A program made the translations under genes and the position numbers. This document shows positions 11,062 to 24,800 of a DNA stretch of 64,000 nucleotides, piece by piece. The stretch's first letter is position 1. The number at the start of each line of letters is the position of its first letter. Origin of the DNA: Planctomycetota bacterium (GTDB lineage Bacteria > Planctomycetota > UBA1135); the NCBI GenBank assembly GCA_027623295.1, contig JAQBXR010000007.1, positions 43,552 to 107,551 on the forward strand, in the 5' to 3' direction. Below the pieces are notes generated by a model, which was not told where the DNA came from, did not search any database, and worked only from the letters and a program-made list of their open reading frames with translations.

Positions 11062-11106
11062 CAGGCGAGAATAAACTATGTGCCCCCGGTACGTGCACTA
11101 AACATC

Positions 11107-13605
11107 ATGATTCGTCGACCTCTCCCTTTCGCTGCGCTGGCCCTCTTGTCGGGCCTCGCCGCAATCCCTTTATTCGCCCACACCTCCGGCTCCGGCGATT
11201 CTGCTCCAAACACGAGCGGTTCTTCTGAGCAGAAGGCGCAGCGCGTGGTGGTCCTCGGCATGGACGGCATGGATGCCGAAGTGACTGGCGACTGGATGGA
11301 TGCCGGTGAGCTGCCGAACTTTCAGCGGCTCCGCGAGGGCGGCACCTTTGCACCACTCATGCCAGCCAACCCTGCGCAGTCTCCGGTTTCTTGGGCAACC
11401 TTGAACACGGGTGTGAACCCGGGCAAGCACGGCATTTTTGACTTTGTGGGTATTGCACGCGGAAGCAAGAGCAGCCCGGTTACGCCCAACATTGGCTTTC
11501 AAGAGGCTAAGTACTTCACGGCAGAAGAGCTGGGCATGAGTCCAGCCGGCGGCGATTCGAACTACGCAATTATGGGTGGAGGTTTGGTTCTCGGTTTGGT
11601 GCTTTTACTCGGCATTGGTCGGTTGAATAAGCCTGCCGGTTTGGTGATTGGTCTGGCGGTTGCCGGTGGCGCCGTGTTCTTCGGACAGGGCGGTGATGCC
11701 GTGTTGCCAGAGAAGTTCAAAGATTACGAAAGCTCGAACCACGCAAAAAATTATTGGGAGTCGCTCGATGAAAACGGGATTGAGTTCCGTGGACAGGGCA
11801 CGATTGTGGCTTACCCAACGCAAGAGTTGAAGCACGGCAAGTTGATTGCCGGTCTTGGAGCTCCCGACGCAAAAGGTGGCTTGAACTCAAGCGCGATTTA
11901 CACCACCGCAAAGGAACGAAAAGGACGACGTAAAAACTACGACTCTCTTCCTGCAACGGTGATTGAAGAAACCGAAGACTTCAACGTTCGGGTGGGCAAA
12001 AACGCCGGTACTACGCGCGTATTTGAGTTTGTGAAGGAAGGCAACGTGCTTAAGTCGCACCTTTACGGCCCAGCAAACTCCATCCTGAAGAGTAGCTTGA
12101 CCACCGAGCGCAATGAATTGCAGGAAAGTGACAGTGACCCAGAACGCCTTAAGCAGCTAGTTGCTTTGGTAGGCGATGGACGTCGTAGTTTTGGCAACTC
12201 CGACCTTCTGGACACATCCGTTCCGATCTCTGCAACTTGGACCAAAGGCGCTTCGGTGGACTTGACCGTTGCTGAGGTTGCGCAAAACATCGCGCTGAAC
12301 CATTGGAGCGATTTCTATCAAGTGGAATTCCCATGGCACCCTTCTTACAGCACTTGGGCTTTGGTCCGTTTCTGGGTAGAAGAGCGTGACGGTGAATTGG
12401 AAATCTTTGCATCGCCATTGCAGATCGACCCGCAACATCCGACTCCTGGCAGCCGCATCAGCTGGCCGGCAAGCTTCGCCGCGGACATCGAATCGCGGAT
12501 TGGACGCTTTGAAACTTTGGGTTGGGCGTGTCAAACCCACGCCGTGAAAGATGCAGAGCTTTCAGACGACGCCTTCTTGGCAGACATCGAGTTCACTCTC
12601 GGATGGCGTACTAAGATGCTGAAAGATGCCGTCGAGCAGGGCGACTGGAAAGTGTTGTTCCACTTCTTCGGAACGCCGGACCGCATTTTTCACATGCTTA
12701 TGCGTCACATGGATCGGCTGCACCCACAGTTCGACGAAGCCGAGGCAAACCGCATGGTTCATTACTTCGGTCAAGACTTTGCACTCAAAGACAGTGGCTT
12801 GGTCATTTACAAAGAGATGGACAAGATTGTCGGCTACGTGCTGGATGAAGTCCTAGCGGAAGACGATGTCATGATGATCGTTTCTGACCATGGCTTCGAT
12901 AGCTTCCGCCGTCAAGTAGATTTGAACGCTTGGTTGGCACAAGAAGGCTTCATGGCTTTGGCCAATAAGTCTGCACTTGGCATTCCAAAGACCGCAAAGG
13001 AAATGAGCAGAAGTGCGCTGAATTTCATTGATTGGCGCGAGTCTCAGGCCTACTCGGTGGCCATCGGCAAAATCTACCTCAACCGGAAGGGGCGTGAATC
13101 TAAAGGCATCGTGACCGATGAAGATGCCGACGCCGTGCTCCAGGAAATCAGTGATCGCCTTTACGCGATGACCGATCCAGATTCGGGCGAGAAGGTTGTA
13201 AAGAAGGTTTATCTACGCGATGACCTTTACAGCGGACCTTATGTGCACCGTTCGGAAACCGGTGGCGAAGGCGCTGCGGAAATCACCATTGACTTCTACC
13301 CGGGTTATCGCGCTTCTTGGTCGGTGACCGGTGGTGGAATCACTTTGGCCGATGGTGAGAACGAAGATGGCGACAAGATTGCTATTCCGGGTGCCTTCAT
13401 CTATGACAACGATTACGCATGGTCGGGTGACCACTGTGGAGTCGACATCATGGAAGTGCAGGGCATCTTCTTCAGTAACAAGCAGTTGGCCTTGCCCTCT
13501 GGAGATGAGTGGTACGACGCCACGCACCTTGCTCCAACAGTGTTGGACTTGCAGGGCGTTGCGATCCCTGAAAATTACGATCGCGCCCCGCTACAACTTA
13601 AGTAA
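11107..13605 (+). CDS. Alkaline-phosphatase-superfamily enzyme, type I phosphodiesterase/nucleotide pyrophosphatase-like (large paralog 1)
   Basis: VVVLGMDGMD, AQSPVSWATLNTGVNPGKHGIFDF, MIVSDHGFDSF and YAWSGDHCG. Signal peptide MIRRPLPFAALALLSGLAAIPLFA from ATG 11107 (the ORF-track GTG is at 11080). An internal hydrophobic hairpin reads IMGGGLVLGLVLLLGIG...AGLVIGLAVAGGAVFFG. Confidence 0.8.
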   Translation: MIRRPLPFAALALLSGLAAIPLFAHTSGSGDSAPNTSGSSEQKAQRVVVLGMDGMDAEVTGDWMDAGELPNFQRLREGGTFAPLMPANPAQSPVSWATLNTGVNPGKHGIFDFVGIARGSKSSPVTPNIGFQEAKYFTAEELGMSPAGGDSNYAIMGGGLVLGLVLLLGIGRLNKPAGLVIGLAVAGGAVFFGQGGDAVLPEKFKDYESSNHAKNYWESLDENGIEFRGQGTIVAYPTQELKHGKLIAGLGAPDAKGGLNSSAIYTTAKERKGRRKNYDSLPATVIEETEDFNVRVGKNAGTTRVFEFVKEGNVLKSHLYGPANSILKSSLTTERNELQESDSDPERLKQLVALVGDGRRSFGNSDLLDTSVPISATWTKGASVDLTVAEVAQNIALNHWSDFYQVEFPWHPSYSTWALVRFWVEERDGELEIFASPLQIDPQHPTPGSRISWPASFAADIESRIGRFETLGWACQTHAVKDAELSDDAFLADIEFTLGWRTKMLKDAVEQGDWKVLFHFFGTPDRIFHMLMRHMDRLHPQFDEAEANRMVHYFGQDFALKDSGLVIYKEMDKIVGYVLDEVLAEDDVMMIVSDHGFDSFRRQVDLNAWLAQEGFMALANKSALGIPKTAKEMSRSALNFIDWRESQAYSVAIGKIYLNRKGRESKGIVTDEDADAVLQEISDRLYAMTDPDSGEKVVKKVYLRDDLYSGPYVHRSETGGEGAAEITIDFYPGYRASWSVTGGGITLADGENEDGDKIAIPGAFIYDNDYAWSGDHCGVDIMEVQGIFFSNKQLALPSGDEWYDATHLAPTVLDLQGVAIPENYDRAPLQLK

Positions 13606-13644
13606 CGGGACGCGATGTGGGAATGTCGGTGGCAGAGTTTCGGC

Positions 13645-14151
13645 TCAGTCGCCGGCGTAACCAAGCCCGCTTAGGTCGACACCAGGGCCATTGGTGCGGA
13701 TGGCTTCAAAAGCAGCAGCAGGCTTTCCTAGCTTTTCTTTGAGGTCCGGGAAGGTAGCCAATGCATAGGCGACCATTTCATCGCCAGCATCTGGCATGGC
13801 GGCAGCAACCGCAGCATCGCAAAGTTTGAGCAAGCCATCGCCGGTGAGGTGATCTGCATGGTCAGCTTTGAGGCGATCGAAAGCAGCCATGGCGCCTTCT
13901 TCATTGCTGTCATCGAGGTGCAGGTTGACCAAAGCGAGCAAGGCATCGCCCTGAAGTTTGGCATCGCCGTTTGCTGCAGCGTACTCATAGCCAGCTTGTG
14001 CGGTTGCAACGTTGTCAGAAGCAGCAGCGGCATCGGCCTGGTCCATGGCAGCAACCGGATCGGTGAAAGTCGCAGCGGTTTCTTTGGAATCGCCAGAGCA
14101 AGCGGCAAGGCCGAGCGCCAGGACGAGGGGGAGTGTGTGAGTGAAACGCAT
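13645..14151 (-). CDS. Small lipoprotein of unknown function (paralog A)
   Basis: The lipobox-type signal is LVLALGLAAC-SG. The rest is Ala/Asp-rich and helical. It is collinear with the neighbouring 164-aa lipoprotein. Confidence 0.7.
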   Translation of the reverse strand: MRFTHTLPLVLALGLAACSGDSKETAATFTDPVAAMDQADAAAASDNVATAQAGYEYAAANGDAKLQGDALLALVNLHLDDSNEEGAMAAFDRLKADHADHLTGDGLLKLCDAAVAAAMPDAGDEMVAYALATFPDLKEKLGKPAAAFEAIRTNGPGVDLSGLGYAGD

Positions 14152-14219
14152 GATGGTTGTCGGGTCGGAGATTTCCGGGGAGGAATCTTACTCTTTACGG
14201 CTAGGGGGTGTTGAAATTA

Positions 14220-14714
14220 TTAGTCGTGAGCACATCCAATCTGACTTAGGCCGCCACTTTTAATCAAGGTTCGGATCCTGGTGTACTCTTCATCTATGAC
14301 AATCCACCTGTCTTGTAGCTCAGGGTATTCCTCACTGGCAAGCTGCAGCATGGGCTCGCCGAGCTCGGCCATGTTGGCGGTGATCGCCAGGTTACACAGG
14401 TTGCGGAGTTTCTCAGCGGATAAGAGTGGCATGTGGTCCGCAACCAGGCAATCAAAAATCAGCAAGCCTTGGTCGGTTTTGCCATAGCGCAAATGGACGT
14501 CAAGTAGGCCGAAAAGGGCTTCAGAAGCCATTTCTTCACTCCCATGCTCCAAGGCATACGCGAAGCCAGCCTCGGCGGTCATGGGGTGATTCGCGGCAAT
14601 TGCTGCATCGGCTATGACGAGCGCTGCAACGGGGTCGTCGAAGTTGGGGATGACCTCTTCTTTTTCGCATGCTGCGAGGCAGAACAAGAGGAGTAGGGAG
14701 GTGACGGACTTCAT
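14220..14714 (-). CDS. Small lipoprotein of unknown function (paralog B)
   Basis: The signal is LLLLFCLAAC-EK. DPVAALVIADAAIAANHPMTAEAGFAYALEHG... aligns with DPVAAMDQADAAAASDNVATAQAGYEYAAANG... of paralog A. Confidence 0.7.
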   Translation of the reverse strand: MKSVTSLLLLFCLAACEKEEVIPNFDDPVAALVIADAAIAANHPMTAEAGFAYALEHGSEEMASEALFGLLDVHLRYGKTDQGLLIFDCLVADHMPLLSAEKLRNLCNLAITANMAELGEPMLQLASEEYPELQDRWIVIDEEYTRIRTLIKSGGLSQIGCAHD

Positions 14715-14817
14715 AAGGACTTCCTTGAAATCAAAGTCTACTTTTTGTGGCTCCAGGTGGGCCGAAAAACTGGAAAAACCCTCGTTGCAGGGGGGGGTCG
14801 CGCTCCGATAAGGCTAC

Positions 14818-14866
14818 GATTGGAGTAAGAAAGCACTCACAAGGGGTATCTATTCGCACTCCAATC
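14818..14866. promoter_or_regulatory. Perfect 9-bp inverted repeat (GATTGGAGT-N31-ACTCCAATC) 36 nt upstream of the RHH gene and sat
   Basis: Read directly: arms at 14818-14826 and 14858-14866. It could be an operator or a 5'-UTR stem. No function has been demonstrated. Confidence 0.3.
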
Positions 14867-14901
14867 AGGTAACCTGTCTCACTTCTAATCTTCCTTGGAT
14901 C

Positions 14902-15120
14902 ATGCAAAAAGAAACACGAGTCACTGTTAAAATCCCACGTCCGCTTTACCGGCGGATTCAGCAGGTGATTGCTAACACGGGTTTCTCGTCACCAACCGAG
15001 TTCATCGTTTACGTCCTCAGGGACCTGATGAGCGAAGTTGAGACCAAGGAAGAGCAGGAATTTAGCCCTGAAGAATTGCAGGCCATTACGCAGAAGTTGA
15101 AAAACCTCGGATACCTGTAA
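14902..15120 (+). CDS. Small ribbon-helix-helix (CopG/Arc/MetJ-like) protein, paralog 1
   Basis: The beta-strand VTVKIP is followed by helices PLYRRIQQVIANTG and FSSPTEFIVYVLRDLM. An acidic linker and a C-terminal LKNLGYL tail follow. The gene lies 36 nt upstream of sat. Confidence 0.65.
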   Translation: MQKETRVTVKIPRPLYRRIQQVIANTGFSSPTEFIVYVLRDLMSEVETKEEQEFSPEELQAITQKLKNLGYL

Positions 15121-15155
15121 ACCCTTTTAAACAAACCATTTAACCTTTCAGAATC

Positions 15156-16307
15156 ATGATTGCTCCGCACGGTGGAAACCTGATCAACCGCGTCGTCGAA
15201 GGTGGCGAGCGCGAATCCTTGCTCGCAAAGGCAGCCTCTTTGCCGGCTCTCACCCTCAACTCCCGCGAAACCAGCGATTTTGAAATGATCGCCACTGGCG
15301 CCATGAGTCCTTTGGAAGGTTTCATGGGAGAAGCCGATTACCACGGTGTCGTGGAAAACATGCACCTCGCATCGGGTCTCGCTTGGCCACTACCTGTGGT
15401 TCTTGCAGCAAAGGATGGCGAGTCCGCAGTTGCGGGTTCTGAGTACGCCCTGAAAGGCGAAGACGGAACCATTCTTGGTGTCATCGCCGTAGACAGTGTC
15501 TACAGCCCTGACAAGAAGAACGAGCTAGTGAAGTGCTATCAGGGTGACGAAGATCACCCAGCATGGGGCTACCTCGCATCCATCGGTGACACCTACATTG
15601 GTGGTCAAATCACCATGGCAAATCTGCCTGCTTACGAGAAGCACAACGATTTCCGCCTCACTCCAGTGCAAACCCGCGCTGCCTTCGCTGAGAAGGGTTG
15701 GAACAGCATTGTTGCTTTTCAAACACGTAACCCAATTCACCGGGCTCACGAATACCTAACCAAAGTGGCACTTGAGCAGACCGATGGTCTCTTGATTCAC
15801 CCATTGGTTGGCGACACCAAGGCAGATGACATTCCATCGGATACCCGCATGGAGTGCTATCACGCACTGCTGAACAAGTACTACCCACTCGATCGCACCA
15901 TGCTCGGCGTTTACCCGCAGGCCATGCGTTACGGCGGTCCACGTGAGGCGATTCTGCACGCGCTTTGCCGTCAGAACTACGGTTGTACTCACATCATCAT
16001 TGGTCGCGATCACGCTGGCGTAGGTTCTTACTACGGCACCTTCGATGCCCAACAGATTTTCAACCAGTTTCCCGATGGAGAGATTCTCATCGAGACCTTA
16101 CTTTTTGAGCATGCTTTTTACTGCAAGTTGACCGGCGGCATGGCTTCCACGAAGTCCAGCCCAGCCACTAAAGACCAGAAGGTCTTCCTTTCCGGTACCA
16201 AGGGGCGTGAAATGCTAGCAAATGGCGTACGTCCGCCAGCTGAGTTCACGCGTCCTGAAGTCGCCGACATCCTGATCGCTTCCTACGCTCAACCGGCGCA
16301 GGCTTAG
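15156..16307 (+). CDS. sat: Sulfate adenylyltransferase (ATP sulfurylase)
   Basis: QTRNPIHRAHEYL and IIGRDHAGVG motifs at a homo-oligomeric Sat length (383 aa). Confidence 0.92.
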   Translation: MIAPHGGNLINRVVEGGERESLLAKAASLPALTLNSRETSDFEMIATGAMSPLEGFMGEADYHGVVENMHLASGLAWPLPVVLAAKDGESAVAGSEYALKGEDGTILGVIAVDSVYSPDKKNELVKCYQGDEDHPAWGYLASIGDTYIGGQITMANLPAYEKHNDFRLTPVQTRAAFAEKGWNSIVAFQTRNPIHRAHEYLTKVALEQTDGLLIHPLVGDTKADDIPSDTRMECYHALLNKYYPLDRTMLGVYPQAMRYGGPREAILHALCRQNYGCTHIIIGRDHAGVGSYYGTFDAQQIFNQFPDGEILIETLLFEHAFYCKLTGGMASTKSSPATKDQKVFLSGTKGREMLANGVRPPAEFTRPEVADILIASYAQPAQA

Positions 16308-16336
16308 TCCCTCAAAACATCGCAAGCTAGAGACTC

Positions 16337-17248
16337 ATGTTTGGATTTGGTAAAAAACGCGAGAACAACCATCTGTTCATCATCACACTCGACTCGTGCC
16401 GCTTTGACTCGTTCATGGCGGCCGAGCCGGAGAACATCGCCAAATTGTGCGGTGGTCTCAGTAATGTTGAAAAGCGTTATTCCTACGCTGGATGGACCGC
16501 TCCGTCTCACTACAACCTCCTGACCGGCTTAGTGCCGCACAGTAGTCCTACCGAGGTTTACGCTTCGGAGTACTACAAAGAGGATCTCTACAAGTTCAAG
16601 GATCGCCTTGGTGTGGAGGAGGCTGGCTTTGAAGCCATGATTCCGCATCTATGGCTTCCGGCTTACATGAAGAAAAAGGGCTATGAAACTCATGCTCTTG
16701 TTTCTTTGCCGGTTTTGAACCCTGCTACCGGGATTAACCGCGACTTTGACACTTTCAAACTCATGCCAAAGCACAACGACATGTTGGCTATGTTGGATGA
16801 TATGGAAGCACACAAGAAGCGTGATTCCAAGGGTCTTAAGGGCAACACTCCACAGTTCTACTTGATGAACGTGGGTGAAACTCACTATCCATATGGCTTG
16901 CCCGATGAGGACAAGAACGATTTGCCGCACATCTCTGGTGTGAATGGTATTTTCAAGAAGCTGGATAAGCAGATTGGTGACGACGGCGTCTTGATCTCGG
17001 ACAAAGAGTCCGGCGATTTCATGGACGCAGACATCATCGAGAAGTGCCGCCAGCGCCAAATCAACACGGTGAAGTATCTCGATCAAGAGGTCTTCCCACG
17101 GTTTTACGACCTGCTACCGAAAGATAGCTGGGTCATTGTTACTGCTGACCACGGTGAACTGTTCGGTGAAGGTGGCTACTTTGGCCACGGCCCGATCATG
17201 CACGAAAAGTGTTTCGAGGTTCCCTTCCTCGAAGGCAAACTCAAATAA
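16337..17248 (+). CDS. Small cytoplasmic alkaline-phosphatase-superfamily enzyme (NPP/type I phosphodiesterase-like, Thr nucleophile)
   Basis: IITLDSCRFD (metal-ligand Asp). GWTAPSHYNLLTGLVP resembles the NPP motif TFPNHYSIVTGLYP. VIVTADHGELFGEGGYFGHG is also present. There is no signal peptide. The gene lies 29 nt after sat and 30 nt before cysC. Confidence 0.7.
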   Translation: MFGFGKKRENNHLFIITLDSCRFDSFMAAEPENIAKLCGGLSNVEKRYSYAGWTAPSHYNLLTGLVPHSSPTEVYASEYYKEDLYKFKDRLGVEEAGFEAMIPHLWLPAYMKKKGYETHALVSLPVLNPATGINRDFDTFKLMPKHNDMLAMLDDMEAHKKRDSKGLKGNTPQFYLMNVGETHYPYGLPDEDKNDLPHISGVNGIFKKLDKQIGDDGVLISDKESGDFMDADIIEKCRQRQINTVKYLDQEVFPRFYDLLPKDSWVIVTADHGELFGEGGYFGHGPIMHEKCFEVPFLEGKLK

Positions 17249-17278
17249 TCATCCCCGTTTAACAAGAAGATTAGACCC

Positions 17279-17830
17279 ATGTCTGACCATAAAGGATTCG
17301 TACTCTGGTTCACCGGCCTATCCGGTTCTGGCAAGTCCACCCTCTCTCGCATGATTGAAGGTGAATTGCGTAAGCGCGACTGCAAGGTCGAAGTTCTCGA
17401 TGGCGATGAAGTTCGCGAGAACCTCTCCAAAGGCCTCGGTTTCTCCAAGGAGGACCGCGACACCAACGTGCGTCGTATCGGCTACGTTGCCAAGCTGCTT
17501 AGCCGCAATGGTGCTATCTGCATCACTGCTGCAATCTCTCCATACAAGGACGTGCGTGACCAGTGTCGCGCGATGAACCGTCACTTCGTTGAAATCTACG
17601 CAGAGTGCTCGATTGAGGAGCTCACTCGCCGCGACGTCAAGGGTCTTTACGAAAAGGCTTTGTCTGGTGAGATCAAGCACTTCACCGGCATTTCGGATCC
17701 TTACGAGGCTCCTGAGAAGGCGGAAGTCACGATCAACTCTGAAACTCAGTCAGAAGAGGAATCGCTCAAATCCATCATGGATTACCTCGAAGGTCAGGGT
17801 TACATCCCGGCCGTCGCAGCAAACGCATAG
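17279..17830 (+). CDS. cysC: Adenylylsulfate (APS) kinase
   Basis: P-loop FTGLSGSGKSTL, LDGDEVR and the SPYKDVR block. 183 aa. Confidence 0.92.
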   Translation: MSDHKGFVLWFTGLSGSGKSTLSRMIEGELRKRDCKVEVLDGDEVRENLSKGLGFSKEDRDTNVRRIGYVAKLLSRNGAICITAAISPYKDVRDQCRAMNRHFVEIYAECSIEELTRRDVKGLYEKALSGEIKHFTGISDPYEAPEKAEVTINSETQSEEESLKSIMDYLEGQGYIPAVAANA

Positions 17831-17844
17831 TTTGGTTTCAAATA

Positions 17845-17890
17845 CTGAGGGGAACGGGGAAAAAAGCCCTTTCCCCTCAGTTCTATTTCA
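17845..17890 (+). terminator. Candidate intrinsic terminator after cysC
   Basis: A 10-bp perfect stem pairs CTGAGGGGAA (17845-54) with TTCCCCTCAG (17871-80). The loop is 16 nt and is followed by TTCTATTTCA. The large loop and interrupted T-run lower my confidence. Confidence 0.45.
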
Positions 17891-17911
17891 CGCATAATTC
17901 ACCCCTTCGCC

Positions 17912-20077
17912 ATGAAGCGGTCCCGCAGATTCCTTCTCCCCCTCGCTGTTCTATTTGCATGGCTCAGCGCCCCCGACCCCGCCTCGGCCTACATTGGCCC
18001 CGGTGCGGGTTTCGCATTCCTGTCAGGTGGCTTGGTCCTCATTGGATCCCTGTTCCTGGCGGTCGGCATCCTGCTGATCTACCCATTGAAGATGATCTTT
18101 CGGATTGCCACTGGCGCCGGAAAGATTAAAGGCGATATCAAACGCCTCGTCATCATCGGTTTCGATGGCATGGACCCTCGCCTTGCGCAGCGGTTCATGG
18201 ACGAAGGTCGCATGCCCAATATGAAGGCGTTAGCAGAGGAGGGGAGTTTCTCTCCACTGCAAACGGCATACCCTTCCATGTCGCCGGTTGCGTGGTCGTC
18301 GTTCTCGACAGGTGTAGATGCTTCGCGGCACAACATCTTCGACTTTATTACGCGCGATCCTTGCACGTACATGCCGATCCTTTCCAGCACCGAGATCACC
18401 TCGGCTGAGAAGGCTTTGGTGAAGATTGGCAAGTTGGAATTGTTCAAGCGGCCGAGCTCAAGTATCAAGTTGTTGCGTAAAGGAACTCCTTGGTGGAAGA
18501 CTCTGGGTGATAAGAAGATCTTTTCCAACATCATTCGCGTGCCGATTACCTTCCCACCGGAAGAGCATCATGGCGTGTTGCTGAGTGGCATGTGTGTTCC
18601 TGACTTGAAGGGAACCCAAGGCAGTTTCACTTTTTGGACTAGCGATGAATCCCTCACTGGCCCCGATGCCGGCGGCGATGTGTTGTTAGTAGGCAAAAAT
18701 GGTAACGCCTATCGTTGTCCAATCACTGGCCCGCCCGATCCATCGCAAGCGCAGGCTACGCCAATGCGCGTGCCGATGAAGGTTGAGGTTCTGGTAGACG
18801 GCGAGAAGCTTCGCCTGACCATTGGCGCCAAAGGCAAGCAGCAAATCGTAAACCTGGGCGTCAAGGAATACTCCGAGTGGATTACTCTCGAGTTCAGGGC
18901 TGCCAAAGGCAAAGCCAAGGTCACCGGAATCGCTCGCTTCTACTGCATGGGCACCGATCCTGAGTTTGGCCTCTATATGACGCCAATCCAGATCGATCCA
19001 GCAAACCCAGCGATGCCGATTTCGCATCCAACGGTTTACTCGATCTACCTTGCTAAAAAGCACGGTCCATTTTCCACGCTTGGACTTGCCGAAGATACTT
19101 GGGCATTGAACGAACGCGTCATTGATGAGGAAGCGTTCTGGAAGCAGGCGCTAAACATCTGGGATGAGCGTCGTTTGCAGTTGTTTGATTCGCTGCAGAA
19201 TACTCCAAAGGGTTCCATCGTCTGTGTCTTCGATGGTACCGACCGCGTGTCACACATGTTCCACCGTTACTTGGACCCAAGTCACCCTGCCAACGAAGGC
19301 AAGGATACCGAGTGGGGCAAGGACAAGGTCGCCGAGATTTATTCCATCGCCGATGGTTTGGTCGGAGACGTGCGCAAGAAACTGAACCCGAAGAAGGATC
19401 GTTTAATGATCATCTCGGACCATGGTTTCTGTCAGTTCAAGCGCGGAGTGAACCTCAACGCTTGGTTGCGTGACAATGGTTACTTGGTCTTGAAGGACGA
19501 TGCACCAGTCGATGAAGCCTCCGGCAAGCCCACTTCGCGTGACTGGCTGAGGGATGTCGATTGGACTAAAACTAAAGCGTTTGCGCTTGGCCTTACCGGC
19601 ATGTTCATCAACCGCAAAGCCCGCGAGCGCGATGGCATTGTGGAAGAAGGCGCTGAGTTGGAAGCCTTGAAGGCAGAAATCATTGCCAAGCTTTCCGCCG
19701 TGAAGGATCCCAAAGACGGTGAGTTGATCTTCAAGGAGGTCTTCGATGCCGGCAAAATCTTTACCGGACCTTACGTCTTCCAAGCTCCTGACTTGTTCAT
19801 GGGCTATAAGCGTGGTTACCGCAACTCATGGGATTGCGCGACGGGCGCTTGCCCGGTCGAGGTGTTCTCGGATAACACCAAGTCGTGGTCGGGTGACCAC
19901 TGCATTGATCCGCGCGAGGTTCCAGGAGTCATTTTCTCCGATACTCCGCTCAACACCGATACGCCAAACCTAATGGACCTCGGCCCAACTGCCCTGCGTC
20001 TGTTCGATGTTGACGTGCCAAAATACATGCAAGGCCAACCGTTGTTTGGTGAACGCAAAGAAAAGGTGAAGTCATGA
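17912..20077 (+). CDS. Alkaline-phosphatase-superfamily enzyme, type I phosphodiesterase/NPP-like (large paralog 2)
   Basis: VIIGFDGMDP, SMSPVAWSSFSTGVDASRHNIFDF, MIISDHGFCQF and KSWSGDHCID. The N-terminus has two hydrophobic segments (FLLPLAVLFAWLSA and AYIGPGAGFAFLSGGLVLIGSLFLAVGILLIYPL). Confidence 0.8.
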   Translation: MKRSRRFLLPLAVLFAWLSAPDPASAYIGPGAGFAFLSGGLVLIGSLFLAVGILLIYPLKMIFRIATGAGKIKGDIKRLVIIGFDGMDPRLAQRFMDEGRMPNMKALAEEGSFSPLQTAYPSMSPVAWSSFSTGVDASRHNIFDFITRDPCTYMPILSSTEITSAEKALVKIGKLELFKRPSSSIKLLRKGTPWWKTLGDKKIFSNIIRVPITFPPEEHHGVLLSGMCVPDLKGTQGSFTFWTSDESLTGPDAGGDVLLVGKNGNAYRCPITGPPDPSQAQATPMRVPMKVEVLVDGEKLRLTIGAKGKQQIVNLGVKEYSEWITLEFRAAKGKAKVTGIARFYCMGTDPEFGLYMTPIQIDPANPAMPISHPTVYSIYLAKKHGPFSTLGLAEDTWALNERVIDEEAFWKQALNIWDERRLQLFDSLQNTPKGSIVCVFDGTDRVSHMFHRYLDPSHPANEGKDTEWGKDKVAEIYSIADGLVGDVRKKLNPKKDRLMIISDHGFCQFKRGVNLNAWLRDNGYLVLKDDAPVDEASGKPTSRDWLRDVDWTKTKAFALGLTGMFINRKARERDGIVEEGAELEALKAEIIAKLSAVKDPKDGELIFKEVFDAGKIFTGPYVFQAPDLFMGYKRGYRNSWDCATGACPVEVFSDNTKSWSGDHCIDPREVPGVIFSDTPLNTDTPNLMDLGPTALRLFDVDVPKYMQGQPLFGERKEKVKS

Positions 20078-22218
20078 AGCACACGCTAAAACTTGCCGCC
20101 GTCTTGGTTGCTGGAATGAGTCTTCTAGGTTGTGGTGAAAAACAATCCGAGACTCGTGTGGTCGTGTTCGGTGTGGACGGATTAGATCCGGAAATGCTGC
20201 AAGAACGCGTCGACAGGGGCATGATGCCTAACTTCAAGAAGTTGTTGGATAACGGCTCGACTTTCGCGCCGCTGCAAACTTCTTGGCCTCCGCAATCGCC
20301 AGTCGCATGGTCGAACTTCATCTCGGGTGTGAATCCGGGTAAGCATGGTTTGTATGACTTCATTCATGCGGACTACACGCAGAAAAACTACGGTGTGAAG
20401 TCTTCCATGGCGGAAACTACCCCAGTGGGGCGTGACATCACCTTGTTTGGTTATGATATTCCGTTGACCGGGGGAGTCACTTCTAGCACGCGTAAGTTCC
20501 CAGCCTTCTGGGAAGTCCTGGCCGATGCAGAGGTGCCGACCTACGTGCACCGCATGCCGGCAAGTTTTCCGCTTACCGAAACCACTGCTACGGTATTCCC
20601 GGACATGGGGACGACGGATATGGTCGGCGCAATGTCTGGAATTTCTTATCTTTGGACCGAAAATGAGTTCAAGGGCAAGAGTTTGGTGGGAGAGTCTTAT
20701 CGCGTGGAGAAAGTAGAACTCAACCGTCGTAATGAGGACATGTGGCTTCAGTGGACCAAGCTTTACGGACCAGCAGAAACCATTCTCAATGTCGATGACC
20801 TCAAGCATCAAATCCACGAGGCGATTGAGGCCGGCAACAACGAAAAGGCCAATGCACTGCAAAAGGAGATCGAGCGTAAGCAAGAAGTCTCCGTTCCAGT
20901 CGCGCTGATGGTTGACAACACCGGCGATGCCCCGCAACTCGCGGTGCAAATCGAAGATCAATACGCCACCGCCGGATTAGGTGAGTGGAGTAACTGGGTG
21001 CAGGTGGAATTCTCGGTGCTTGGCGGCCTGATGCCGCTTACCGGATACACCCGTTTCCGCTTTATGTCTGCGCAACCATTCGAAGTTTACGCCCTGCCGA
21101 TTCAGTTCGATCCTTATGCGCCGGCAACGGAGATTTCCATGCCGCCAGAAGCAAGTGCTGAACTCGCCGAAGCGATTGGCCCCTATATGGTGCAGGGATT
21201 CGCCGATGCCTACAAGTCCTACAAAGCCGAGTTGTTGGATACTTCTGGCTTTATCAACCAGTCCGACATGGCTCTGGATGAACGCACCAAAATGATGCAC
21301 TACGGTCTCGATCAAATCGAGGAGACCGGCGGACTCTTGTTCCTCTACACGGGGTCATTGGACATGCGCTGTCACATGTTGTGGCACACCTCCGATGACA
21401 TACACCCGCACCAAGAGGAAGCTGGTGAGTACTTAGGCGTTCCTTACGACGAGCAGATTGATCGCATTTACATGCAGGTCGACACCATGCTCGGCGAAAT
21501 GGTCGCACGCATTGAAAAGATGGAAGTGGAGTCCGGTGAGAAAATCGAACTCATCGTCATGTCGGACCACGGCTTTGCGCCTTTCCATCGCAAGATGCAC
21601 ATCAATGATTGGTTGGTGCAAGAGGGTTACTTGGTGCTGAAAGATGGCATCACCGAAACTAGTGACCTCAATCTTGATCTCGATGCCGATGGCCATCCGA
21701 TTAAAGGTTCTGGCCCAGTGGATTGGTCGAAAACCACGGCTTACTGCATTGGCTTTAACGGCATCCTGCTGAACCGCGTAGAGCGCGAAGGCGAAGGCAT
21801 CGTTACCGACGAGGAAGTGGAGGCCTTGCTCACCGAGATTACCGGCAAGTTGCTCGCACTCGAAGATGGCGGAGTGCCAGTCCTCACCCGCGTGCTTCCA
21901 GCAACCGAAGTCTTCCAGGGGCCAGCCGAAGTCATGAAGTTTGCCCCGGACCTGCAACTCGGATTTAATACCGGCTTTGGCGCTTCTGATGAATGCGCGA
22001 TTGGCGGTGTCGTCGGTGGGGGAGAATTCCTCGTCGACAATGATTCCCGCTGGTCGGGATCGCACCTCATGGATCCTGAACTCGTTCGGGGCACCATCAT
22101 CTCTACGTCTGGCAAAACCTTCTCGAAGGACCCAGCGCTAGAAGATATCACTGCAACCCTCTACAGTCTGTTCAACGTGGCTCCCCCCGAGGGCACCGAC
22201 GGACTACCTCTTTACTAA
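20074..22218 (+). CDS. Alkaline-phosphatase-superfamily enzyme, type I phosphodiesterase/NPP-like (large paralog 3, lipoprotein)
   Basis: ATGA overlap with paralog 2. The lipobox signal is VLVAGMSLLGC-GE. Motifs VVVFGVDGLDP, PQSPVAWSNFISGVNPGKHGLYDF, IVMSDHGFAPF and SRWSGSHLMD are present. Confidence 0.8.
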   Translation: MKHTLKLAAVLVAGMSLLGCGEKQSETRVVVFGVDGLDPEMLQERVDRGMMPNFKKLLDNGSTFAPLQTSWPPQSPVAWSNFISGVNPGKHGLYDFIHADYTQKNYGVKSSMAETTPVGRDITLFGYDIPLTGGVTSSTRKFPAFWEVLADAEVPTYVHRMPASFPLTETTATVFPDMGTTDMVGAMSGISYLWTENEFKGKSLVGESYRVEKVELNRRNEDMWLQWTKLYGPAETILNVDDLKHQIHEAIEAGNNEKANALQKEIERKQEVSVPVALMVDNTGDAPQLAVQIEDQYATAGLGEWSNWVQVEFSVLGGLMPLTGYTRFRFMSAQPFEVYALPIQFDPYAPATEISMPPEASAELAEAIGPYMVQGFADAYKSYKAELLDTSGFINQSDMALDERTKMMHYGLDQIEETGGLLFLYTGSLDMRCHMLWHTSDDIHPHQEEAGEYLGVPYDEQIDRIYMQVDTMLGEMVARIEKMEVESGEKIELIVMSDHGFAPFHRKMHINDWLVQEGYLVLKDGITETSDLNLDLDADGHPIKGSGPVDWSKTTAYCIGFNGILLNRVEREGEGIVTDEEVEALLTEITGKLLALEDGGVPVLTRVLPATEVFQGPAEVMKFAPDLQLGFNTGFGASDECAIGGVVGGGEFLVDNDSRWSGSHLMDPELVRGTIISTSGKTFSKDPALEDITATLYSLFNVAPPEGTDGLPLY

Positions 22219-22239
22219 CCTCCTGGACCGGAGAACATC

Positions 22240-22437
22240 ATGTTTGGTGGAAATAAACTAAAGATCAATAAGGACATTATCGAGCGCTGCAAAAAGTGTT
22301 CGGAGGTCGCTGGCTACTCTTCTGTAGAAGAGTTCGTCGAGCACATTCTCGAGAAGGAACTGAAAGGCATCGAAGGTGCTGGCACTTCCGACGAAGCGAT
22401 TACCGAAAGCCTGCGCGGCCTCGGTTACATCAGCTAA
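22240..22437 (+). CDS. Small ribbon-helix-helix-like protein, paralog 2
   Basis: KLKINKDIIERCKKCSEVAGYSSVEEFVEHILEKEL aligns with VTVKIPRPLYRRIQQVIANTGFSSPTEFIVYVLRDL of paralog 1. The C-terminal LRGLGYIS aligns with LKNLGYL. Confidence 0.6.
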   Translation: MFGGNKLKINKDIIERCKKCSEVAGYSSVEEFVEHILEKELKGIEGAGTSDEAITESLRGLGYIS

Positions 22438-22466
22438 CTTAAAACGAAACGAAAAACCCTACCACG

Positions 22467-23390
22467 ATGAAACAACGAATCATCGTCATCGGCATCTGTG
22501 CAATCCTTGTGGCAGTTGGCATGCTTGCGCCAACCGTCATGAACGCCATTTTTGATGTCTTCGACTTAGCCTTCGGTTGGGCCGGCCCGTTTGCGGTCGT
22601 CACCATAGTTTCCGGATTGGTTGGGGTGTTGTTCATCCTTGCCTTCCCGCACGTTTCCTCACAGAAAGGAATCAAGTCGGTGAAGTCAAAGATTAGCTAC
22701 AACCTAGTTTCGATTCGCCTATTCCAAGACGACTTGCCAACCGTGATGCGGTCCCTAGGCGCCACGCTTACTTGGAACTTTACTTACCTTGGGTTGAACC
22801 TGCTTCCAATGGTGGTGCTTGCCGCGCCATTCATGATTGTGTGGTTTCAGCTCAACGCGCTTTATGCTTATCAACCGGTGCATGCTGGCTCCGAGCAGAT
22901 GGTCGTGGTGGAGTTAAGTGAGTCGGTTGCAGATCCAAGTGAAGTGGTTGTCACCATGCCAGACGGCGAGGTGCTCGGCTCCCGGGTCAACTTGGGCAAG
23001 CGCTACAACACCGAAGATCCTCCGGTGCAGCAAGCCGCAACTTTGTTGGTGCGCTACATCCCAAGTACCGAGGGCAGCCAAGCGCTCACCTTCAGCTACG
23101 CCGGAGAGAGTGTTACCAAGACGGTTGAGGTAGACACCGATCCGCGTCGTTTGGCGCGCATCCGCACCTCTGACCCATTGGGTGGATTTGTAGCGGCGGT
23201 CGACCCGATTGTCTACTTCGGTGACCCAGTCCTGCCTTCGAGCAGCTTCGTGCGCAACGTCACGGTCAACTACGCAGTGGCTCCACTCTGGTTCATGGCT
23301 GGCGGTGAAATGTCCATCATGATTTGGTTTGTGGTGGTCTCCATGATTGTCGGCTTCGGACTGAAAGGCCCACTTGGGGTTGAGATCTAA
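22467..23390 (+). CDS. Membrane protein of unknown function
   Basis: The N-terminal half has about 4 hydrophobic segments, followed by a soluble middle region of about 120 aa and a C-terminal TM (MSIMIWFVVVSMIVGFGL). It lies 29 nt after RHH paralog 2. Confidence 0.6.
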   Translation: MKQRIIVIGICAILVAVGMLAPTVMNAIFDVFDLAFGWAGPFAVVTIVSGLVGVLFILAFPHVSSQKGIKSVKSKISYNLVSIRLFQDDLPTVMRSLGATLTWNFTYLGLNLLPMVVLAAPFMIVWFQLNALYAYQPVHAGSEQMVVVELSESVADPSEVVVTMPDGEVLGSRVNLGKRYNTEDPPVQQAATLLVRYIPSTEGSQALTFSYAGESVTKTVEVDTDPRRLARIRTSDPLGGFVAAVDPIVYFGDPVLPSSSFVRNVTVNYAVAPLWFMAGGEMSIMIWFVVVSMIVGFGLKGPLGVEI

Positions 23391-23495
23391 GGCTTAGGCC
23401 TCCGTTACTCCCCATAGGAATCGCATTCTTGCTTTTCCTCTTTTAGAGCACCACTGAGACACCCCACGCAGCCCTGCTAACATGGGCGCGTGAAG

Positions 23496-24800
23496 ATGCA
23501 TACCAAGATTGCCCTAGCCATGGTGCTGGGCGCCCTCGCAGGATGGGGGCTTCAGACATTCGCTGAGGCTGATTACCTCACCACCACTGTGATGAAAGGT
23601 GGCCTGGAGGCGCAACTCCAGGTGCTCGACCCGGAGAGTCAACGCGCCGCATGGTTGACGCCCTTTGTCATGGCCGCCGACATCTTTATGCGGCTGCTGA
23701 AAATGCTCATCGTGCCGTTGGTTTTGAGCAGTATTGTGACCGGCGTTGCAGGCATCTCTGGTGGCAAAGAATTCGGACGCCTGGGCATGAAGACCATGGC
23801 GTATTACATGTCGACTTCTATGCTCGCCATCATTACGGGCTTGCTGGTCATTAACATTACCGCGCCCGGGGTCGATGCCGCGCTGAACCTAGCCATCCCG
23901 GAGAACTTCAATCCCGGCGAAGGCTCGAGCTTCCTCGACATTTTGCAACGCATGGTGCCGCCGAACATCTTCAGCGCCCTTTCCGATAACGGGCAGATGC
24001 TGCAAATCATTGTTTTCGCTCTGCTGCTCGGCACCTTCATCGGCCGCGTGGGCGAACCGCACTCCACCCGCATGCGCGAGTTTTTCGACAGCTTCTTCGC
24101 CGTCATGATGGCGATTGCAACCGCAGTCCTCAAACTCATCCCATACGGCGTGTTTGCGCTGGTAGCCAAAGTGGTCGGAGAAACCGGTTTCGAGGTCTTC
24201 GTTCCACTTCTGAAGTACATGGGCATTGTCGCTTTTGCCCTGCTCTTCCACGCCGGTGTGGTGCTGCCACTCATCCTGAAGTTCGTCGGCGGCATCTCGC
24301 CCATGGCATGGTTCAAAGCCATGTCTCCAGCCCTGATGACGGCGCTGTCCACCTCGTCCTCGTCCGTCACCCTGCCGGTTTCTATGGAGAGTGCGGAGCA
24401 CCGCGGCGGCGTATCGAATAAGCACACTTCTTTTGTGCTTCCACTCGGCGCCACCATCAATATGGATGGAACTGCCCTGTACGAATGCGTCGGCGTGATG
24501 TTCCTTTGCCAGTATTACGCTTCGACGGGAGACTTCGACCTCACTATGGGCAAGCAAATCTTCATCGTGATGACGGCGCTGTTTGCGTCCATCGGAGCTG
24601 CCGGAATCCCATCTGCCGGACTCATTATGATGACCGCGATCCTCAGCGCGCTCGGCCTTCCCACCGAAGGCGCACTCATGCTGCTCGCCATCGACCGTCC
24701 ACTCGACATGCTCCGCACCATGGTCAACGTGTGGTCTGATTCTTGTGGCGCCGCACTCATCGCAAAGTCCGAAGGCGATGCAATACTATCCCAATCATGA
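23496..24800 (+). CDS. Dicarboxylate/amino acid:cation symporter (DAACS family)
   Basis: MTALSTSSSSVTLPV (compare the SSSAATLP motif), LGATINMDGTALYE and NVWSDSCGAA. ATG at 23496 (the ORF-track GTG is at 23490). Confidence 0.85.
   Translation: MHTKIALAMVLGALAGWGLQTFAEADYLTTTVMKGGLEAQLQVLDPESQRAAWLTPFVMAADIFMRLLKMLIVPLVLSSIVTGVAGISGGKEFGRLGMKTMAYYMSTSMLAIITGLLVINITAPGVDAALNLAIPENFNPGEGSSFLDILQRMVPPNIFSALSDNGQMLQIIVFALLLGTFIGRVGEPHSTRMREFFDSFFAVMMAIATAVLKLIPYGVFALVAKVVGETGFEVFVPLLKYMGIVAFALLFHAGVVLPLILKFVGGISPMAWFKAMSPALMTALSTSSSSVTLPVSMESAEHRGGVSNKHTSFVLPLGATINMDGTALYECVGVMFLCQYYASTGDFDLTMGKQIFIVMTALFASIGAAGIPSAGLIMMTAILSALGLPTEGALMLLAIDRPLDMLRTMVNVWSDSCGAALIAKSEGDAILSQS

Follow-up and report, generated by a model that had tools for sequence, protein, structure and literature searches.

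The DNA analyzed here, hereafter called the window, is a stretch of 64,000 nucleotides from a Planctomycetota bacterium of the UBA1135 lineage (assembly GCA_027623295.1, contig JAQBXR010000007.1, positions 43,552 to 107,551 of the forward strand), which encodes two small proteins, RHH-1 and RHH-2, predicted to adopt the ribbon-helix-helix (RHH) fold. RHH-1 leads an operon for the synthesis of 3'-phosphoadenosine 5'-phosphosulfate (PAPS), in which it is followed after 35 nt by sat, a gene encoding a 303-residue sulfatase-fold protein, and cysC. RHH-2 starts 21 nt after the end of AP3, the second of two consecutive AP-family genes (AP2 and AP3), and is followed by a gene encoding a membrane protein. 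The placement of the two genes, 5' of sat and 3' of AP3, had been given in a preceding sequence-only reading of the window and agrees with the list of open reading frames (ORFs). We found that RHH-1 and RHH-2 are members of one large unnamed RHH family, marked by an extra C-terminal module, which we refer to as the LGY tail. This tail is portable, and its distribution suggests a docking tag common to several proteins more than a similarity arisen by chance.

Over 64 aligned residues, RHH-1 and RHH-2 are 27% identical (BLASTP E 9e-9), and hhalign joined their family profiles end to end, tail included (probability 97%, E 9.8e-11), which bears out the earlier proposal that they are paralogous along their whole length. 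In a set of 5.8 billion proteins, RHH-1 has 1111 homologs, nearly all from Planctomycetota metagenome-assembled genomes (MAGs) and some annotated as CopG/Arc/MetJ (JGI, NCBI), and RHH-2 has 227 homologs, which reach Gemmatimonadota, Myxococcota, and Schekmanbacteria. When a library of 1.84 billion proteins was searched with a merged RHH profile, no fewer than 1836 clusters (50% identity) matched at E ≤ 1e-3. In the alignment of RHH-1 homologs (A1), the RHH core and the K-L-x-N-L-G-Y-L end are invariant, and the linker between them is of low complexity and differs in length by up to ~40 residues. In the alignment of RHH-2 homologs (A2), the N-terminal M-F-G-G and the G-L-G-Y-I-S end are invariant, and protein length is near constant (63-66 residues). 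Conservation between phyla amounts to 57-65%, which is unusually high for a plain RHH regulator. Several variants (P0241, P0367, P0377) are tandem RHH-RHH proteins, that is, single-chain pseudo-dimers, with one tail only. Another candidate, P0272, in which RHH-2 runs into a Rad23-type UBA sequence, was dropped as probably chimeric, being a singleton on a 538-bp contig.

Both proteins are predicted to have the RHH fold. The AlphaFold2 model of RHH-2, based on a 72-sequence alignment, has a mean predicted local distance difference test (pLDDT) score of 92 and comprises an extended segment (residues 1-10) followed by helices at residues 11-24, 29-47, and 51-61. Foldseek comparison with the PDB superposed its core on the NikR N-terminal domain, CopG, and Arc with a root-mean-square deviation of 1.6-1.9 Å over 40-42 residues (probability up to 0.97); the list of best matches also includes MazE9-N and 1y9b, and the matches covering all three elements are the RHH antitoxin-type proteins 1y9b, AtaR, and TacA. 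Foldseek E-values were weak, as expected with a 65-residue query. The fold of RHH-1 is tied to the modeled RHH-2 by hhalign (97%). The turn between helices A and B reads G27-F-S-S in RHH-1 and G25-Y-S-S in RHH-2, and basic or polar residues alternate along the strand (R6/T8/K10 and K6/K8/N10, respectively), the turn glycine and the strand lysine (K10/K8) being invariant in both families; these features are consistent with a DNA-binding RHH protein. RHH-1 scored 13.7 bits on Pfam RHH_1, below the cutoff of 20.5, RHH-2 gave no RHH hit, and NikR models reached only E 0.0065, with matches limited to the N-terminal 45-50 residues of the models. It is thus the fold, and no family model, that places the two proteins in the RHH superfamily. 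PDB sequence searches with both family profiles gave sub-threshold matches only (NikR-N, E 0.27; Helicobacter pylori RNA polymerase alpha-CTD, E 0.15; APS kinase C-terminus, E 5.4). Unlike NikR, proteins of 72 and 65 residues have no ACT-like metal-binding domain, and unlike NikR, CopG, and Arc, both carry the additional LGY tail. In helix B of RHH-2, residues E31, F32, H35, E38, and E40 are invariant across phyla and the MFGG segment is nearly so, both being absent from RHH-1; together, these features might create a metal- or partner-binding site peculiar to RHH-2.

The tail is an amphipathic, N-capped acidic helix that leads into L-x-x-L-G-Y-[ILV], with this motif lying at the C-terminus or within ~3 residues of it. 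LGY falls within the last seven residues in 120/120 RHH-1 hits and 120/120 RHH-2 hits, so that the endings LKNLGYL and LRGLGYIS, to which the sequence-only reading had drawn attention, are conserved features of both families. Among 147 new representatives at 50% identity from the merged-profile search, 133 end in LGY plus at most four residues, and most exceptions look truncated or frameshifted. In the RHH-1 tail, K65, L66, N68, L69, G70, Y71, and L72 are invariant in A1, and in the RHH-2 tail, G60, L61, G62, Y63, I64, and S65 are invariant across phyla in A2. The protein P0302 (107 residues; NCBI MGA1791317.1; six cluster members) is a real homolog with two tandem tails. The near-terminal tyrosine, described earlier as strictly conserved, is nearly invariant in both families, but one RHH-1 ortholog (locus L033) ends in LGSL, with serine in its place.

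Gene neighborhoods were mapped by tblastn in genome or assembly loci (L001-L089) and in metagenome loci (L090-L169), the latter representing the divergent MAKIKID...GLGYIE subfamily. Among 8419 ORFs of at least 50 residues in the studied loci, 140 terminate in LGY[ILVMAT] followed by no more than six residues, and almost all of these belong to a few gene classes: the two RHH families, the TPR-like (tetratricopeptide repeat) lipoprotein, C-terminal extensions of CysC, and three nearby PF00884 sulfatases. Lipoprotein A has orthologs with the ending L-[KSA]-x-LGY-[VAL] in ~17 other loci; the similarity of the lipoprotein A ending, LSGLGYAGD, to the RHH tails, noted in the earlier reading, is thus real and conserved. 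A hidden Markov model of the 20-residue tail, built from RHH proteins only, retrieved from the same 8419 ORFs the CysC extensions of L057 (E 5e-5) and L088 (E 1.7e-3). In some Planctomycetota, CysC carries a C-terminal extension of ~25-35 residues composed of a Pro/Ala/Gly linker and an RHH-like tail, e.g., SAEEEDAIKTRLQDLGYI or SSEEEEQIKGRLKSLKFID. The acidic helix is also found in six additional CysC tails, which end in K/N/S/G followed by F-[IV], phenylalanine replacing tyrosine. The sulfatases encoded near the cassette end in L-K/R-x-LGY-[IT]-x (Table 1). Since the tail ends RHH proteins, CysC, a lipoprotein, and sulfatases alike, it is a portable module. The phenylalanine (CysC) and serine (L033) variants indicate that the aromatic hydroxyl is not strictly required, and favor hydrophobic docking over hydroxyl modification.

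Table 1. Features of the window and tail-bearing proteins of related loci (positions refer to the window unless a locus is named)
Feature	Position	Strand	Remarks
AP1	11080-13605	+	AP-family paralog, 841 residues; PF01663 E 2e-26; convergent with lipoprotein A
Lipoprotein A	13645-14151	-	TPR-like; divergent from RHH-1; C-terminal LSGLGYAGD coded at 13648-13674
Lipoprotein B	14220-14714	-	paralog of A (34% identity); degenerate tail LSQIGCAHD
Putative -10 element GATAAGGCT	14807-14815	+	read from the sequence; array begins just 3' of it
Operator-like array	14819-14888		four half-sites, 5' of RHH-1
Half-site TACTCCAAT	14819-14827	-	inverted
Half-site CACTCACAA	14834-14842
Half-site CACTCCAAT	14857-14865
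Half-site CACTTCTAA	14880-14888
RHH-1	14902-15120	+	72 residues; RHH core (~residues 5-44), acidic linker, C-terminal tail
RHH-1 tail module E53-L72 (EFSPEELQAITQKLKNLGYL)	15058-15117	+
sat	15156-16307	+	NCBIfam/Pfam; PAPS operon led by RHH-1
Sulfatase-fold protein	16337-17248	+	303 residues; PF00884 E 2.9e-10
cysC	17279-17830	+	NCBIfam/Pfam; ends PAPS operon (15156-17830)
Terminator-like GC-rich hairpin	17844-17881	+	between cysC and AP2
CATAAT -10 box (putative)	17893-17898	+	14 nt before AP2 start
AP2	17912-20077	+	PF01663 E ~4e-26; N-terminal signal-like segment, AYIGPGAG loop, second transmembrane segment
AP3	20074-22218	+	lipoprotein; PF01663 E ~4e-26
RHH-2	22240-22437	+	65 residues; N-terminal MFGG, RHH core, third helix, GLGYIS end
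RHH-2 tail module T49-S65 (TSDEAITESLRGLGYIS)	22384-22434	+
Cassette membrane protein	22467-23390	+	307 residues; directly 3' of RHH-2
Lon protease gene	24743-27229		~2.3 kb 3' of RHH-2
CysC with extension, L057	4016-4618
CysC with extension, L088	4536-5180
CysC with extension, L042	4914-5525
CysC with extension, L048, L055, L063, L078, L040
PF00884 sulfatase, L052	10447-12342		631 residues
PF00884 sulfatase, L084	4002-6614	-	870 residues
PF00884 sulfatase, L042	17230-18714	-	494 residues

The neighborhoods of RHH-2 homologs contain the same cassette genes again and again, often beside sat/cysC, sulfotransferase, or sulfatase-fold genes. On contigs with distant RHH-2 homologs, the order is AP (~710 residues), AP (~660-710 residues), RHH-2, and membrane protein (~280 residues), with a sulfotransferase of ~205 residues encoded near the cassette. 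A scan of one genome per GTDB species yielded at least 552 cassette stretches, in Planctomycetota, Acidobacteriota (Thermoanaerobaculia, Holophagales, Vicinamibacteraceae), Thermodesulfobacteriota, Eiseniibacteriota, and a Pseudohongiellaceae MAG; across all searches, the linkage was seen in Planctomycetota, Acidobacteriota, Gemmatimonadota, Thermodesulfobacteriota, Eiseniibacteriota, and one gammaproteobacterium. The AP pair lies directly 5' of RHH-2 in 83/84 evaluable genome loci and 55/59 evaluable metagenome loci, and the membrane protein gene directly 3' of it in 79/80 and 64/66, respectively. RHH-2 is thus an internal, tightly spaced, and near-universal gene of an AP-AP-RHH-membrane cassette, not an operon-leading autoregulator. 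The link of the cassette to sulfur metabolism is frequent, not universal: among long loci (≥12 kb), any sulfur gene was present in 46/63 from genomes (sulfotransferase in 22, sat or cysC in 27, sulfatase-fold gene in 23) and in 6/13 from metagenomes, and 27% of the long genome loci, as well as roughly every second metagenome locus, lack a sulfur gene within 8-10 kb. In ~18 loci (18 long loci), the order RHH-1, sat, sulfatase-like gene, cysC is retained, and this operon is a Planctomycetota addition to the cassette.

Orthologs of AP2 from different phyla (L004, L045, L052, and others) share a basic N-terminus, a signal-like hydrophobic segment, an invariant AYIGPGAG loop, a second transmembrane segment, and a basic stretch (window 17912-18140), and AP3 orthologs have a lipobox or signal anchor. 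From this pattern, we infer that AP2 is probably a transmembrane hairpin with a cytoplasmic catalytic domain and AP3 a periplasmic lipoprotein, which would place the two paralogs on opposite faces of the membrane. The membrane protein was modeled by AlphaFold2 (pLDDT 92.6) with five N-terminal helices, an immunoglobulin (Ig)-like beta-sandwich (~144-270), and a C-terminal transmembrane segment; Foldseek against the PDB returned Ig-like matches only, with no informative neighbor. PDB sequence searches with AP2, the 303-residue sulfatase-fold protein, and the cassette sulfotransferase gave no sequence hit for any of them. After the SDHG metal motif, the AP proteins contain internal helix-Gly-aromatic segments, namely LNAWLRDNGYLVL in AP2 (19500-19560), INDWLVQEGYLVL in AP3 (21640-21700), and LNAWLAQEGFMAL in AP1 (~12800), which resemble the LGY tail motif; the resemblance may be meaningful or reflect a generic structural motif.

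Upstream of RHH-1 lies an operator-like array of four half-sites, one inverted and three direct, the direct ones being spaced 23 bp. The inverted repeat at 14818-14866, recognized already in the sequence-only reading, is real and forms part of this array: no other pair of CACTCCAAT matches with at most one mismatch falls in an intergenic promoter region of the window, and the exact CACTCCAAT occurs once in the window, within the array. In the upstream regions of RHH-1 orthologs, RCACTCCAAT repeats are found within 200 bp before the start codon in 22/23 cases. The density of CACTCC/GGAGTG is 10.9 per kb in the upstream 200 bp vs 0.38 per kb elsewhere in the same loci, 9/10 ACTCC-N3-5-GGAGT palindromes fall within the upstream 200 bp of RHH-1, and the dyad ACTCC-N4-GGAGT is present in 9/23 RHH-1 loci (p ~2e-20). 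Half-sites are spaced by 10-11 or 21-23 bp across loci and would therefore lie on one face of the helix. The -10 element at 14807-14815 is putative and was not among the calls of a sigma-70 scan; in other loci, cassette genes are preceded by related elements (CGATAAGGC / GATAGAAT). With phased arrays of this kind 5' of RHH-1 in nearly all orthologous loci, RHH-1 is in our judgment likely a DNA-binding regulator, and probably an autorepressor. The array sits in the 187-bp divergent region common to RHH-1 and lipoprotein B, and may control both directions, including the lipoprotein genes.

The hairpin and the CATAAT box separate cysC from AP2. In the cysC/AP2 gap, a stem of -20 to -38 kcal/mol was obtained in 11/11 related loci folded, with a different sequence in each, and the conservation of the stem despite differing sequence, together with the CATAAT box in the window, suggests that transcription terminates here and restarts from a second promoter, which would give a very short leader. 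This agrees with the division of the locus into two operons proposed earlier. The accompanying idea that each operon has its own autoregulator copy is supported for RHH-1, which has the conserved array, and not for RHH-2, which is internal to the cassette and for which no conserved operator was found. Enrichment of k-mers and dyads 5' of AP2 (58-64 loci) and inspection of the RHH-2/membrane-gene spacers revealed no conserved motif; what emerged was limited to the AYIGPG signal from the coding sequence, boxes of the -10 type, and repeats confined to single lineages. For RHH-1, the operator was recovered by this dyad test (p ~2e-20), which shows that the method works. In one acidobacterial genus, a palindrome CATACT-N13-AGTATG is located between divergent sulfotransferase and AP2 genes (L049, L056, L068, L071), and it is a possible lineage-specific RHH-2 operator.

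We propose, tentatively and at odds that we would put a little short of even, that the locus encodes two RHH regulators docked through their tails to a common cassette partner. RHH-1 dimers would bind phased RCACTCCAAT half-sites just 3' of the promoter of their own sat/sulfatase-like/cysC operon, repress it, and probably also control the divergent lipoprotein genes. RHH-2 would serve as a dedicated small cytoplasmic subunit or regulator of the cassette of AP2, AP3, and the membrane protein, which would work together with PAPS supply or a sulfotransferase. The tail would act as a protein-protein docking element, not as a modification site, tethering both regulators to the common partner; in some genomes, it would dock CysC likewise and, across the membrane, the TPR lipoprotein and sulfatases. 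Candidate tail partners are AP2 inside and AP3 or the Ig-like domain outside. Transcription of the PAPS operon and of the cassette could thereby be coupled to the state of the machine, by a logic analogous to that of RHH antitoxins, in which a C-terminal helix binds a partner.

RHH type II antitoxins (TacA/AtaR/DUF1778-like proteins, e.g., PDB 1y9b; ParD; MazE9-N) are indeed the best full-length structural matches to the RHH-2 model: similarly to RHH-1 and RHH-2, they combine an RHH core with a flexible acidic segment and a C-terminal helix, which in their case binds the partner, and they autoregulate their own operon. Unlike in these systems, no toxin-like gene adjoins either RHH gene, the neighbors (sat, AP3, and the membrane protein gene) coding for metabolic or membrane proteins; the tail motif does not vary between phyla and is found on unrelated proteins as well; and no antitoxin family was matched. 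Such toxin-free contexts recur in ~160 other loci, and searches of PADLOC, Pfam, and NCBIfam with both RHH proteins and all neighbors identified no defence system and no toxin domain. The earlier view that the two proteins are not obvious antitoxins therefore stands.

Several points weigh against the docking model. Tail-bearing proteins occur on both sides of the membrane, which is hard to reconcile with a single receptor, and paralogous or membrane-spanning receptors must be assumed. The tails of the lipoprotein and the sulfatases have only the short L-x-x-LGY in common with the RHH tails, helix-Gly-aromatic endings are common (the CysC of the window itself ends in YLEGQGYIP, and RHH-1 has a weak POTRA hit), and part of the resemblance could be convergent. 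The AlphaFold monomer packs the RHH-2 tail helix on the core with high confidence, so the helix could be simply structural. Finally, no RHH-2 operator was found despite strand residues conserved across phyla, and RHH-2 may not be a transcription factor at all.

Among the alternatives, the one that survives best, unlikely as we consider it, is that the tail is a homotypic oligomerization helix joining RHH dimers at neighboring half-sites without a heterologous partner, the CysC and lipoprotein endings being independent motifs for self-association or capping. A precedent is phage P22 Mnt, whose RHH domain is accompanied by a C-terminal tetramerization helix. Mnt is likewise a very small RHH protein with an extra C-terminal amphipathic helix and an operator with several half-sites. 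The RHH-1 tail shows an amphipathic heptad-like pattern (L59, I62, L66, L69), multiple half-sites at 10-11 or 21-23 bp suit cooperative binding, and the variable linker would let tails bridge sites. However, the helix, at only ~12-15 residues, is shorter than that of Mnt, PDB searches detected no sequence similarity to Mnt, and the tail occurs also on proteins that do not bind DNA. Oligomerization would leave unexplained both the 20-residue module on CysC in just these clusters and the lock of RHH-2 into the AP-AP-membrane cassette.

It is quite unlikely, in our estimation, that the tail is a structural cap folding back on the RHH core of ordinary small autoregulators, the motif sharing being convergence on a helix-Gly-aromatic supersecondary motif. 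Such a cap would agree with the modeled helix 51-61 (pLDDT 92-96) and the near-constant length of RHH-2, and a generic motif is also suggested by L-x-x-x-G-Y-[IL] look-alikes within the AP2 and AP3 sequences and at the end of canonical CysC, as well as by the weak POTRA and RNA polymerase alpha-CTD matches. A tail that merely caps the core would not be expected to remain invariant behind the low-complexity RHH-1 linker differing by up to ~40 residues, to be doubled in the natural protein P0302, or to recur as a full 20-residue module on CysC, after a Pro/Ala/Gly linker and with no RHH core; nor does the conservation between phyla fit a plain RHH regulator.

We regard it as very improbable that the tail tyrosine is O-sulfated or otherwise modified by a PAPS-dependent enzyme of the cluster, with the RHH proteins acting as substrates or sulfation sensors, as the sequence-only reading had suggested in its second proposal. 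In its favor are the sat/cysC genes, ~200-residue sulfotransferase, or sulfatase-fold protein accompanying the cassette in 46/63 long loci; the nearly invariant tyrosine, preceded in the chain by an acidic stretch; and the cassette sulfotransferase of other phyla (PF13469/PF00685), whose profile has TPST2 and TPST1 as best PDB matches (E 0.017). This likeness, however, is confined to the common PAPS P-loop, and neither tblastn with cassette sulfotransferases nor Pfam scans of neighboring genes found a sulfotransferase in the window. The tyrosine is flanked by Gly and Ile/Leu (G-Y-[IL]) rather than by Asp/Glu as in an acidic D-Y context, it is replaced by phenylalanine in CysC tails and by serine in the L033 ortholog, and sulfur genes are absent from the surroundings of the loci specified above. 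The comparison with Xanthomonas RaxX, a secreted 60-residue precursor with a double-glycine leader that is sulfated by RaxST and processed and exported by RaxB/RaxA (PMC6637879), extends to a small protein with a conserved tyrosine near PAPS-related genes and, in other phyla, a sulfotransferase in the cassette. In contrast to RaxX, RHH-1 and RHH-2 are predicted to be folded cytoplasmic RHH domains that start directly at the RHH strand, with no double-glycine leader, and the ORF list and Pfam scans revealed no ABC/PCAT exporter gene in the cluster. We thus obtained no positive evidence for sulfation, and of the two suggestions made earlier, docking peptide or sulfation substrate, the docking peptide is the better. 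In a wider reading, the tail would be the recognition element of a widespread, so far undescribed sulfation-linked membrane machine composed of AP2 facing the cytoplasm, AP3 in the periplasm, the membrane protein with its Ig-like domain, and a small sulfotransferase or PAPS supply. Its most far-reaching form, in which the PAPS-dependent enzyme of the cluster O-sulfates or transiently modifies the RHH tail tyrosine, is in our view likewise very improbable; if true, a post-translational mark would let a transcription factor in the bacterial cytoplasm sense PAPS or sulfation status directly.

Least credible of all is a tail that destabilizes the proteins by serving as a C-terminal degron or as a signal for processing of the Lon, ClpXP, or Prc type: RHH antitoxins are typically labile, a lon gene lies nearby, and the C-terminus is hydrophobic or aromatic, but the residues after the tyrosine differ (L, LD, IS, IE, VGD, TGSDDQ), unlike in exact C-terminal degron recognition, periplasmic lipoproteins and cytoplasmic CysC would need different proteases, and the gene tables inspected for other loci did not show a neighboring lon.

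The RHH fold and the general regulatory logic are known, unlike the tail, its portability, and the cassette. Pfam and NCBIfam gave nothing significant for either RHH protein, the membrane protein, or the lipoproteins; an Rfam scan of 13000-24000 at E up to 1 gave no match; full-text literature searches (tail peptides; RHH together with sat in Planctomycetes) returned nothing relevant; and we found no curated family, defence-system model, Rfam family, or paper in the library searched for the RHH proteins or the cassette. A family of this size lacking a Pfam or NCBIfam model is defined here by an invariant C-terminal motif, whose presence on unrelated proteins of the same neighborhoods (APS kinase, TPR lipoproteins, sulfatases) has the signature of a shared docking tag and marks an uncharacterized four-to-five-gene cassette in hundreds of uncultured species, their phyla being those of marine, sediment, and soil habitats. 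Should the tail prove to be a docking tag, it would offer a handle on the function of the AP pair and the membrane protein, and would clarify the control of PAPS synthesis in this group of Planctomycetota. For RHH-1, the conserved RCACTCCAAT operator already makes the model directly testable.

Two observations concern the remaining genes. The 303-residue sulfatase-fold protein has no signal peptide and reads W-T-A-P-S-H at the sulfatase C/S-x-P-x-R motif, threonine replacing the formylglycine precursor; it weakly matches the C-terminus of an STM4013-family hydrolase model. In Planctomycetota, its gene takes the slot held by the small sulfotransferase in other phyla, and the protein is therefore a candidate for the enzyme that handles PAPS or APS in this cluster. 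The adjacency of AP1 and lipoprotein A is retained in loci L010, L020, L021, and L022.

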